DNA of 64,000 nt, from positions 10,712 to 74,711 of the forward strand of contig MFKT01000009.1 of assembly GCA_001781125.1 (NCBI GenBank). The letters run 5' to 3'. The notes under the pieces are model-generated. The model ran no database searches. It saw nothing but the letters and a program-made list of their open reading frames with translations, and was not told the origin of the DNA. A program made the translations under genes and the position numbers. The stretch is from Candidatus Kaiserbacteria bacterium RIFCSPHIGHO2_01_FULL_53_29. Lineage in GTDB: Bacteria > Patescibacteriota > Minisyncoccia > Phycocordibacterales > UBA2100. Shown here piece by piece: positions 58,929-59,555 of this stretch (position 1 is the stretch's first letter; each line of letters begins with the position of its first letter).

Positions 58929-59420
58929 CTAGGCAACTTCGTCGATCTGCTTGATGCGTCGCGCATGCCGCTCCAGCCCACTGAACGGCGCTGAAAGCCA
59001 GGCCGCGACAGCGCTCGCGGATTCTTCGCCTGTGAGGAACCGCGCCCCGAGAGAGAGGCAATTGGCATCGTTGTGCGCGCGGGTCGAGGAGAGTATGTCA
59101 AGTTCCTCCCCGCTCATGTCGGTCTGCTTTTTGCCAGGGCTCCCGTAATAGAGAGCGCAACGAACGCCTTTGAACCGATTGGCGACCATCGCCTCACCTT
59201 GACCCGAGGCGCCTATCACGACGGCACGCGAGTCGAGGCCATTTGCAACGTCTTGTGACAGTAACCGTGCGGCCTTCGCCACAAACGCCGGGTAATCGTC
59301 GTCCTTATCGTATTGGAGAGCTCCGCAATCGTGCGCTTCATGCCCTCGTATCTCTACATCCTTCATCAAAGCTGCCTTGAGCTCATACCCTGCGTGGTCG
59401 GAGGCAAAATATATCTTCAT
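58929..59420 (-). CDS. rpiB: ribose-5-phosphate isomerase B (RpiB/LacAB family); start at MKIYFASDHAG
   Basis: Family signature. ORF opens at 59450 but the conserved N-terminus begins at ATG 59420. Confidence 0.85.
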   Translation of the reverse strand: MKIYFASDHAGYELKAALMKDVEIRGHEAHDCGALQYDKDDDYPAFVAKAARLLSQDVANGLDSRAVVIGASGQGEAMVANRFKGVRCALYYGSPGKKQTDMSGEELDILSSTRAHNDANCLSLGARFLTGEESASAVAAWLSAPFSGLERHARRIKQIDEVA

Positions 59421-59555
59421 CCCGTTAGAAGTCTGTCGTTGTTTGTTCATACGCTTACATTGGTGATTATGTTTCGCTTACTTCTCGGCTTTCGATATGG
59501 CGTGCAGAAAAATTTACTGTAAATTTTTCTGCCGAGGACTTCTAACGGGATTCAT
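59418..59555 (-). promoter_or_regulatory. leader element B between gap and rpiB: same ATGAATCCCGTTAGAAGTC ... GACTTCTAACGGGATGAA inverted-repeat pair plus an internal AT-rich hairpin
   Basis: The 5' copy starts 3 nt after the gap stop. The 3' copy contains the rpiB ATG. 15-bp perfect long-range pairing. Internal hairpin GCAGAAAAATTT-actgt-AAATTTTTCTGC. Short uORF MNPVRSPRQKNLQ. Confidence 0.5.

Follow-up and report, generated by a model that had tools for sequence, protein, structure and literature searches.

We describe here a family of small mobile elements, found by way of two copies in a 64,000-nt stretch of Candidatus Kaiserbacteria bacterium RIFCSPHIGHO2_01_FULL_53_29 (contig MFKT01000009.1, positions 10,712 to 74,711; the window). 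One lies before rpiB (locus B) and the other before a gene for a pfkB-family kinase (locus A). We are fairly confident that what looks like the leader of each gene is a non-autonomous element resembling the miniature transposable elements with inverted repeats (MITEs), 131 bp long at rpiB and 120 bp at pfkB, and that the two are from different subfamilies of one family. The family has transposon-type ends with target duplications, is widely spread and multi-copy, is concentrated at start codons, is polar with respect to the host genes, and is enriched in open reading frames (ORFs) that stop at a UAA within its 3' end. Coordinates are positions in the window (Table 1), and the rpiB locus is read on the minus strand.

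The rpiB copy had been picked out in a reading of the sequence alone, which took it for a post-transcriptional signal shared by genes of pentose or ribose metabolism. The structural description given there is accurate. We find the perfect 15-bp inverted repeat between gap and rpiB, its second arm reaching into the rpiB AUG (59551-59537 with 59433-59419, spacer 103 nt), the AT-rich hairpin (whose loop, given as actgt, is the plus-strand reading of ACAGT), and a 13-codon upstream ORF (uORF) beginning MNPVRS, as does the uORF at locus A. That this is a shared element and not a chance repeat also holds, the paired arm pattern being present at 2 loci in the window and in none of 100 shuffles. The spacers differ between the loci, as had been noted, and in both orientations their local alignment is no better than that of shuffles. 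This was initially counted against a MITE, but the spacers are unrelated because the two copies belong to distinct subfamilies.

Insertion at the rpiB and pfkB loci

The element has been inserted at both loci, as can be seen from relatives in which the site is empty. In the case of rpiB, the relative L011 (RpiB 69% identical) has gap and rpiB 3 nt apart and reads ...GTA TAG CGC ATGAAGATATAC, which is the window junction minus the element and one TGAA; in L012 and L013 the element is again absent and the spacer is 15 nt. The distance in the window is 138 nt, against these 3-15 nt. In the case of pfkB, L015, L016 and L018 (PfkB about 84% identical) have a -10 box (TAAACT or TATACT), 6 nt and then ATGAAATA. 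The TACAAT box of locus A has the same 6-nt spacing, a leaderless-promoter geometry, although a generic promoter scan made no call at 54020-54025.

Deletion in silico between the two copies of ATGAA gives ...TTTAAAGCATGAA|GATATAT... and ...TACAATTCCCGGATGAA|ATACGAC..., which match the relatives, and an element-free gap-rpiB junction in the population of the window would read TAA AGC ATGAAGATA. The length inserted behind the ancestral ATG, 135 bp at rpiB and 124 bp at pfkB, is that of the element plus one duplicated TGAA. It follows from the empty sites at both loci that the arms are the ends of an inserted element and that the apparent uORF start is the ancestral start codon. The sequence-only reading had itself counted a lack of conserved pairing in relatives against its proposal, and the orthologous rpiB and pfkB leaders there are without the element.

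Other insertions are seen at the same junctions. L014 has a 60-nt gap-rpiB spacer (1036-1097) with another perfect hairpin, AGACTTCGTAAGTCC-TCC-GGACTTACGAAGTCC, and is a junction colonised by a different palindromic element. L017 (PfkB 82% identical) has an unrelated 68-nt insert with two hairpins between its TACAAT box and the pfkB ATG (2425-2500). The genome of L018, with its empty pfkB site, carries locus-A-type copies at map and tpiA (L094, L098).

Proteins identical to those of the window are found in Candidatus Kaiserbacteria bacterium RIFCSPLOWO2_12_FULL_53_8 (GCA_001781875.1). The population carrying the window sequence occurs in many groundwater metagenomes, and 10 contigs from different samples (L001-L010) have the same gap-element-rpiB sequence with a single nucleotide polymorphism among them; being near-identical, they are uninformative on conservation. 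One of them, the 70-kb contig L005, breaks within the element at the AT-rich palindrome and starts ATTATTTTTCTGC..., probably an assembler artefact at the hairpin.

These contigs do bear on the possibility of an inverton, in which an invertase would flip a 103-bp segment carrying a promoter or terminator and so switch rpiB, much as in the Bacteroides Mpi regulon. As in invertons, the same inverted repeats enclose different short segments just upstream of genes, here at two loci; there is a promoter-like site in locus B, and one family member (L034_1785) is flipped with respect to its relatives. However the segment has one fixed orientation in 10 of 10 contigs (the assemblies examined), a strong single-orientation bias extends across genomes, no invertase gene is adjacent, and the duplications and empty sites point to insertion and not to a switch in situ. 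We regard inversion as most improbable. The promoter-like site is weak (1 found against 0.5 expected), and its position is not conserved across the alignment of the locus-B subfamily. Looping of the DNA by a regulator, suggested by the helical phasing of arm centres 107 and 118 bp apart, was dropped given the duplications and empty sites.

Ends, duplications and subfamilies

A scan of genomes, one per species, for CCCGTTAGAAG...CTTCTAACGGG with a gap of 71-131 nt gave at least 119 stretches. When metagenomes were scanned for the longer arm pair, with ATGAA required at either end, at least 120 stretches matched. The anatomy was worked out on 127 copies including both in the window, and the 80 of these that are at start codons form the 80-copy set.

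The element can be written (T/C)CCCGTTAGAAG(Y)...(R)CTTCTAACGGG(A/G) with a 4-bp target-site duplication. Its ends are complementary over 14-15 bp, with T..A or C..G outermost. About two thirds of the 127 copies are flanked by a direct repeat of exactly matching 4-bp units (chance 1/256); TGAA, TGGA, TGAG, TATG, CATG, TTTA, TAAA, TCAA, TATA and TTGA are all seen, with the consensus T-N-N-A or TGRR. From examples like A[TGAA]C-CCCG...CGGG-G[TGAA]A it is clear that the element includes the outermost pair and duplicates 4 bp of its target. The cores are of 93-149 bp and have no transposase gene, their ORFs being of only 13-45 codons with peptides that are not conserved. Within the 119 loci of 8 kb no pair of arms encloses a segment the size of a gene, and unpaired arms are diverged short copies; the collection scans themselves reach repeats up to 600 bp apart.

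Tandem copies (L109:6504-6613 and L112:7581-7692, with a 3' repeat, ATGRNT and the 5' repeat of the next copy) and nested copies (L056:2089-2231, L078:894-1032 and L072/L073) are cases in which a rebuilt start codon was struck again.

The interiors fall into subfamilies common to distant lineages, although clustering by blastn-short was too insensitive to show them and gave mostly singletons. In the locus-B subfamily (alignment A2, 22 copies from different lineages) the 5' repeat is followed at once by a 12-bp A/U-rich hairpin, in which compensatory changes are numerous. The rpiB copy of the window is typical of the subfamily in the 5' half and diverged in the 3' half, and a terminator scan made no intrinsic-terminator call on its hairpin. 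The locus-A subfamily (alignment A3) has GAAGTYGCGGAAGTT at the 5' end and a hairpin before the 3' repeat with GNRA or UUCG loops, the stem of which covaries (GGAAGC/GCTTCC, GGAAGTC/GACTTCC, GGAAATC/GATTTCC and GAGAATC/GATTCTC).

In the terminal repeats position 12 covaries, being Watson-Crick in 75 of the 80 copies. Ungapped pairing of the arms ends beyond about 14-15 bp, and one-sided changes in the extensions of the arm helix are symmetric (G.U 6, A.C 5). The symmetry fits a repeat maintained at the level of DNA, and not an RNA helix under selection.

This is relevant to the suggestion that the inserted element has since been exapted as a cis-regulatory helix, which is compatible with a mobile origin. 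The repeats would pair in the mRNA and hide the first two bases of the rpiB start codon. Ribosomes that terminate on gap would restart on the uORF, melt the 5' arm and unmask the rpiB start, and translation of rpiB would thus be coupled to that of gap. The predicted minimum free energy and centroid folds do close the element by the arm helix (z = -6.2 at locus B, -1.8 at locus A), which at rpiB takes in the A and U of the AUG, the uORF begins 3 nt past the gap stop and spans the 5' arm, and copies are polar relative to their genes. But any terminal inverted repeat would fold in this way, the one-sided changes are symmetric as described, and in 52 of 80 copies the 5' arm instead finds a local partner in the first 75 nt. 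The left ATG is retained at the matching position in 50 of the 80 copies and missing or decayed in 30, and unmasking driven by the uORF is therefore not general. Substitutions in the arm helix give no sign of selection for coupling of gap or the uORF to rpiB. We think exaptation unlikely, though by no means negligible; on the folding predictions the helix or uORF may act locally in cis on the translation of rpiB, as a by-product of insertion.

Concentration at start codons

Of the 127 copies, 80 end exactly on an (A/G)TG behind which an ORF runs for 50 codons or more, and they do so in one orientation only. The two kinds of ends behave differently. Copies with T..A ends have the target A|TG(A/G)(A/G), and 62 of 69 are at start codons; in those with C..G ends the duplications are of the form T-N-N-A, and a start codon is the site in 16 of 53, the rebuilt codon there being GTG. 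At the same loci 6.6% of ATGRR sites are plausible starts, or 34.5% if intragenic sites are discounted as lethal, and against the latter figure, a generous null, 62 of 69 has a binomial P of 1e-21. The metagenome set replicates this, 113 of 121 copies being followed by a real ORF. The rest occupy start codons out of register, stop codons or the bases beside them, a -10 box (L031) or intergenic DNA.

Seven copies appeared to lie within ORFs and were reconstructed, and only one is a true interruption (1 of 127). This copy, L050:460-561, splits a polyprenyl synthetase gene at residue 267 of 333 between exact TTTA duplications, without rebuilding a start codon, and the allele is either recent or dead.

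Of 50 targeted ATGs, 19 (38%) have a leaderless-type -10 box ahead of them, against about 20% of background starts. Shine-Dalgarno (SD)-like motifs are rare in both (6% and 9%, by a crude motif count on the element-bearing loci L019-L137). The start-codon preference could be mechanistic, going beyond selection alone, for example through insertion into the melted promoter or start region of leaderless genes.

The same figures allow us to weigh removal of the element from the RNA, either as a tiny intron or with the arm helix as a processing site, for instance for RNase III. A perfect 15-bp helix with both element ends at its base would be suitable, and cleavage near the AUG would recreate a leaderless mRNA for the many targets that look ancestrally leaderless. 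However an efficient intron would be tolerated inside coding regions, and the single mid-ORF copy argues against an intron-like element; the start codon is rebuilt in nearly all copies, which would be needless with splicing, and the helix has no RNA-specific substitution bias. We think such removal very unlikely.

The elements are directional. Pairs of copies with similar interiors share their orientation to the host gene 117 times and oppose it 30 times. Of 80 copies, 32 carry a YGGGR motif on the sense strand within their 5' half, compared with 2-4 elsewhere, and this is replicated in the metagenome set (38 against 3-5 of 114).

A possible stop-restart junction

The 3' repeat contains UAA-CGGG-AUG, which puts a stop 4 nt ahead of the rebuilt start codon. 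On the sense strand 30 of 80 copies have an ATG-initiated ORF of 15 codons or more that ends at this UAA; on the antisense strand, where the repeat is identical, 5 of 80 do, and the metagenome copies give 33 and 5 of 114. ORFs reach the junction in any frame in 35 of 80 copies, against 16.4 +/- 3.4 with shuffled interiors. Of the 43 copies whose ancestral ATG shares its frame with the UAA, 22 are open over the whole element (5.2 +/- 2.0 in shuffles). The typical internal ATG is 36-49 nt into the element and opens 19-25 codons, and the peptides of internal ORFs are not conserved save for the residues encoded by the repeat. The pfkB copy has an ORF that ends at the UAA in this way and the rpiB copy does not, its uORF stopping short of the junction with rpiB.

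Three related ideas were rejected. In the case of hand-over in any frame (UAA, AUGA overlap or in-frame), only the UAA frame is clearly enriched; an internal leaderless promoter as a general feature has too few cases (4 against 0); and YGGGR as the SD of the internal ORFs is within 15 nt upstream in only 5 of 29, motif and ORF being mostly in different copies.

Distribution and host genes

Among the matches listed nearly all copies are in Patescibacteria, the Candidate Phyla Radiation (CPR). The hosts include Kaiser-, Nealson-, Staskawicz-, Jorgensen-, Nomura-, Zambryski-, Lipton-, Sungii-, Portnoy-, Gribaldo-, Moran-, Falkow-, Uhr-, Komeili- and Kerfeldbacteria, Levyibacteriota and Kazan. Many of the metagenome matches come from the aquifer sample that holds the organism of the window. 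Copies in L029, L039, L050, L056, L078, L095, L099, L103 and L123 are in bins labelled Planctomycetota, Clostridia, delta- or gammaproteobacteria, Bdellovibrionales or Syntrophobacter; these are mostly C..G-ended and GC-rich, and may be mis-binned CPR contigs or indicate a wider host range. There are 2 copies in the 64-kb window, and several assemblies hold 2-4 or more on different contigs. No matches to the element were found in the IMG/VR viral contigs.

The genes behind the element do not belong to any single class. Pfam searches identify uL11, IF-3, MreB, SSB, TIM, uL24, methionine aminopeptidase, Pth and topoisomerase I, and inspection adds several aminoacyl-tRNA synthetases, ATP synthase alpha, NusA, trigger factor, L17, L18, L29 and L31, PGK, MurG and pilus proteins; the functions thus include translation, replication, cell shape, glycolysis, secretion and pili. 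At L084 (about 5400-5460) a copy with one diverged arm is on the L24 start codon in the spc operon, directly behind a GGAGG Shine-Dalgarno sequence.

With regard to the proposed regulon, a conserved RNA leader or riboregulator was expected before pfkB, rpiB, tkt, rpe and rbsK. Two genes linked to sugar-phosphate metabolism do carry the element in one window, and so does one further rpiB, in a different lineage, on the start codon of which there is a 153-nt locus-A-like copy (L204:9436-9599, MKVYIAADHGGFALKE...), of a subfamily other than that of the window rpiB copy. It is an independent strike on rpiB. The proposed search for the arm pair, made in metagenomes, did bring up further copies (at least 120 stretches), but the copies predicted before tkt and rpe are missing in the window; both genes lie between the two loci, and beyond the four arms described there are none in the 64 kb. 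More than 240 further copies are before unrelated genes, orthologous leaders in relatives are without the element, target duplications are present, the interiors of the window copies are unrelated, and no RNA-specific bias is found in the substitutions of the arm helix. Nor is there an Rfam family match: at the gathering thresholds of Rfam 15 the only match in the window is a tRNA, and at E values up to 10 locus A has nothing and locus B only spurious sub-threshold matches. We give the post-transcriptional regulon hardly any credence.

Comparison with known mobile elements

The present family is of the MITE kind. Like the Correia elements of Neisseria, the pneumococcal RUP and MITEAba12 of Acinetobacter, its members are short, have terminal inverted repeats with no transposase gene, make short target-site duplications, occur in several copies per genome and are present or absent at orthologous sites. 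Like Correia elements, the present ones sit next to gene starts and may bring expression signals. In contrast to these MITEs, the present element targets the start codon itself (A|TGRR) and its last base rebuilds ATG or GTG; its exact repeat cores span many classes of Patescibacteria while the interiors are in unrelated subfamilies, and part of the family has a small ORF whose stop is the UAA of the repeat. What is unusual is the start-codon target with regeneration of the codon, the directional content and ends conserved over a whole superphylum. Full-text literature searches found no description of the element, of the arm sequence or of MITEs in CPR bacteria.

CC(C)-initiated repeats and a duplication of 4-5 bp are characteristic of the IS1380/piggyBac group. 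The YCCCG ends and the TGAA, TAAA, TCAA, TATA, TATG and TTTA duplications of the present element are alike in style. The piggyBac elements have a TTAA duplication with the variants TAAA, TCAA and TATG and CCC-initiated repeats, and IS1380 is their prokaryotic outgroup (PMC10813416). The present element, however, prefers TGAA at start codons to TTAA, and the likeness is one of end and duplication style only.

A different source of mobility would be a Y1 (RayT-like) transposase encoded beside gap, the element then being of the repetitive extragenic palindrome (REP/REPIN) type, whose units are imperfect palindromes that lack target duplications. Adjoining gap there is an ORF on the plus strand (60648-61316) with sub-cut-off matches to Pfam Y1_Tnp (19.7 bits) and NCBIfam REP_Tyr_transpos (31.8 bits); it has a paralogue, 36% identical, at about 8959-9477, and a perfect 24-nt inverted repeat (60612-60635 / 60800-60823) has one arm upstream of it and one inside. 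A weak ORF of this kind with a paralogue and perfect palindromes around it could suit such a system. But it is under both curated cut-offs and has homologues at only 3 of 119 element-bearing loci, and the palindromes near it differ in sequence from the arms. Y1 enzymes act on sub-terminal hairpins and are not known to make target duplications; the present element has terminal inverted repeats, arms that are not themselves palindromic and 4-bp duplications. A REP/REPIN-type origin seems to us very improbable.

The Rickettsia palindromic elements (RPEs) are small palindromic mobile elements of a reduced genome that survive by preserving frame or expression. They insert in frame within coding sequences and are translated as part of the protein. 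The present element is similarly a small mobile element surviving at the genes of a reduced genome; unlike RPEs it is at the start codon and outside the host protein, with a possible exception in the 10-codon in-frame extension at rpiB. The UAA junction is comparable to termination-reinitiation in operons, both in the 4 nt between the upstream stop and the host start and in the strand-specific enrichment of ORFs, but here it is brought by a mobile repeat, is not evolved in place, and in the rpiB copy has no ORF ending at it.

How the element may work

At rpiB the element inserted into A|TGAA of the start codon. The left ATGAA is the ancestral start, which now opens the 13-codon uORF, and the present rpiB ATG is made up of the terminal A of the element and the duplicated TG. 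Elements are presumably tolerated before essential genes since (A/G)UG is rebuilt, and starts without an SD, which are the norm in these genomes, would help the host genes to stay expressed. Ribosomes that start at the ancestral AUG, or on an internal ORF of 19-25 codons, may in part of the family terminate at the UAA and reinitiate at the AUG; with 4 nt between the two the geometry is suited to termination-reinitiation, and this applies to the pfkB copy, in which the 39-codon uORF from an ancestral, probably leaderless AUG would hand over to the pfkB AUG. In the case of rpiB, translation is probably from the AUG at 59420 or the in-frame AUG at 59450, on transcripts that read through or are initiated in the element. 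The latter is a putative alternative start produced by the 3' part of the element, and database records give the protein either 163 aa or, in P0001, 173 aa. The enzyme that moves the element is most likely a DDE cut-and-paste transposase acting in trans, as suggested by the resemblance of the YCCCG ends and 4-bp T-N-N-A duplications to the IS1380/piggyBac style.

We would go further only tentatively, and with somewhat more doubt than conviction, in proposing a Patescibacteria-wide self-neutralising family that homes to A|TGRR, rebuilds the start codon with its last base and carries a directional translation hand-over module.

There are several points that tell against our interpretation. In about 1 Mb of flanking sequence (119 loci of 8 kb) we found neither an autonomous copy nor a transposase with these ends. 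The relatives with empty sites are only 69-85% identical in the host proteins and the insertions cannot be dated from them, and no filled/empty polymorphism was seen within the population, 10 of 10 contigs from different samples carrying the rpiB copy. The start-codon bias may come from selection and not from targeting. The rpiB copy lacks the termination-reinitiation layout, as do over half of the members of the family, and internal promoter and SD signals are sparse (strict -10 with ATG, 4 against 0; SD with ATG, 8 against 2). Finally the covarying interior hairpins, as far as alignment can show, indicate a structural constraint, be it at the level of RNA, single-stranded DNA or protein binding.

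Features of the two loci and other repeats in the window

Table 1. Coordinates of the element, its parts and neighbouring features at locus A (pfkB) and locus B (rpiB)
Locus	Feature	Position	Strand	Remarks
A	TACAAT -10-like box	54020-54025	plus	6 nt upstream of ancestral (now uORF) ATG 54032
A	Arms, as at locus B	54032-54050 and 54139-54157	plus	before pfkB-family kinase, ATG 54156; spacer 92 nt
A	39-codon uORF	54032-54151	plus	from ancestral ATG through entire element to UAA in 3' repeat, 4 nt before pfkB ATG
A	TGAA target-site duplications	54033-54036 and 54157-54160	plus	
A	Element, 120 bp	54037-54156	plus	on pfkB start codon; subfamily other than that of locus B
A	Hairpin GGAGGC-GCAA-GCTTCC	54127-54142	plus	directly before 3' repeat; hallmark of locus-A subfamily
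B	rpiB, host gene	58929-59420	minus	163 aa, PF02502; begins MKIYFASDHAG; ATG 59420-59418
B	Downstream arm block GACTTCTAACGGGATGAAG	59433-59415	minus	contains rpiB ATG
B	TGAA, right target-site duplication	59416-59419	minus	TG of present rpiB ATG and AA
B	Element, 131 bp, TCCCGTTAGAAGTC...GACTTCTAACGGGA	59420-59550	minus	last base A (59420) is A of present rpiB ATG
B	3' terminal inverted repeat GACTTCTAACGGGA	59420-59433	minus	holds UAA 4 nt upstream of rebuilt AUG
B	ATG in frame with rpiB	59448-59450	minus	10 codons upstream; extension MNKQRQTSNG-MKIYF...
B	Promoter-like site TCGAAA-18-CATAAT	59466-59495	minus	weak; on sense strand
B	Hairpin GCAGAAAAATTT-ACAGT-AAATTTTTCTGC, 12 bp	59504-59532	minus	A/U-rich; hallmark of locus-B subfamily
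B	13-codon uORF MNPVRSPRQKNLQ*	59514-59555	minus	opens at ancestral start, enters 5' repeat, ends in hairpin loop
B	5' terminal inverted repeat TCCCGTTAGAAGTC, 14 bp	59537-59550	minus	with flanking A 59551 forms 15-bp perfect repeat
B	Upstream arm block ATGAATCCCGTTAGAAGTC	59555-59537	minus	3 nt past gap stop
B	TGAA, left target-site duplication	59551-59554	minus	with A 59555 the ancestral rpiB start region ATGAA, 3 nt past gap stop
B	gap (glyceraldehyde-3-phosphate dehydrogenase, GAPDH)	59559-60563	minus	gene upstream of rpiB; stop TAA 59561-59559, then AGC

Some other repeats were seen in the window. Just past the rpiB stop there is a pair of 30-nt inverted repeats, 77% complementary and 92 nt apart (58765-58794 / 58887-58916), which may represent a terminator region or a further small element. 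Between 1291 and 4677 a 42-nt motif, TTTGGACAAACCCGAGGCGGGGGTATAGGATTC, recurs six times at intervals of a few hundred bases, and it looks like a repeated promoter (TTGGACA ... TATAG) before small genes. A 30-nt tandem repeat of about 12 units (34230-34732) and an 18-nt periodic repeat of about 16 units (39543-40123) presumably lie inside genes for repeat proteins.

Significance

In annotation of Patescibacteria genomes, blocks of 100-150 bp of this kind are liable to be mistaken for leaders, uORFs, attenuators or N-terminal extensions. Recognising the element corrects start-codon calls and accounts for long intergenic gaps in operons that are otherwise tightly packed.

It is unusual for a transposon to concentrate on start codons, among them those of ribosomal-protein, tRNA-synthetase and topoisomerase genes, and yet leave the genes functional. 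If the hand-over of translation proposed above is true, it would let elements settle before essential genes in very small genomes. The family is also a natural experiment on translation start in organisms where Shine-Dalgarno sites are rare and leaderless mRNAs apparently common, and its portable signals (the stop-restart junction, the 5' G-rich motif and the hairpins) may serve as genetic parts for a phylum that is almost without tools. The near-identical ends over many CPR classes point to a widely shared transposase or to frequent horizontal transfer among episymbionts.

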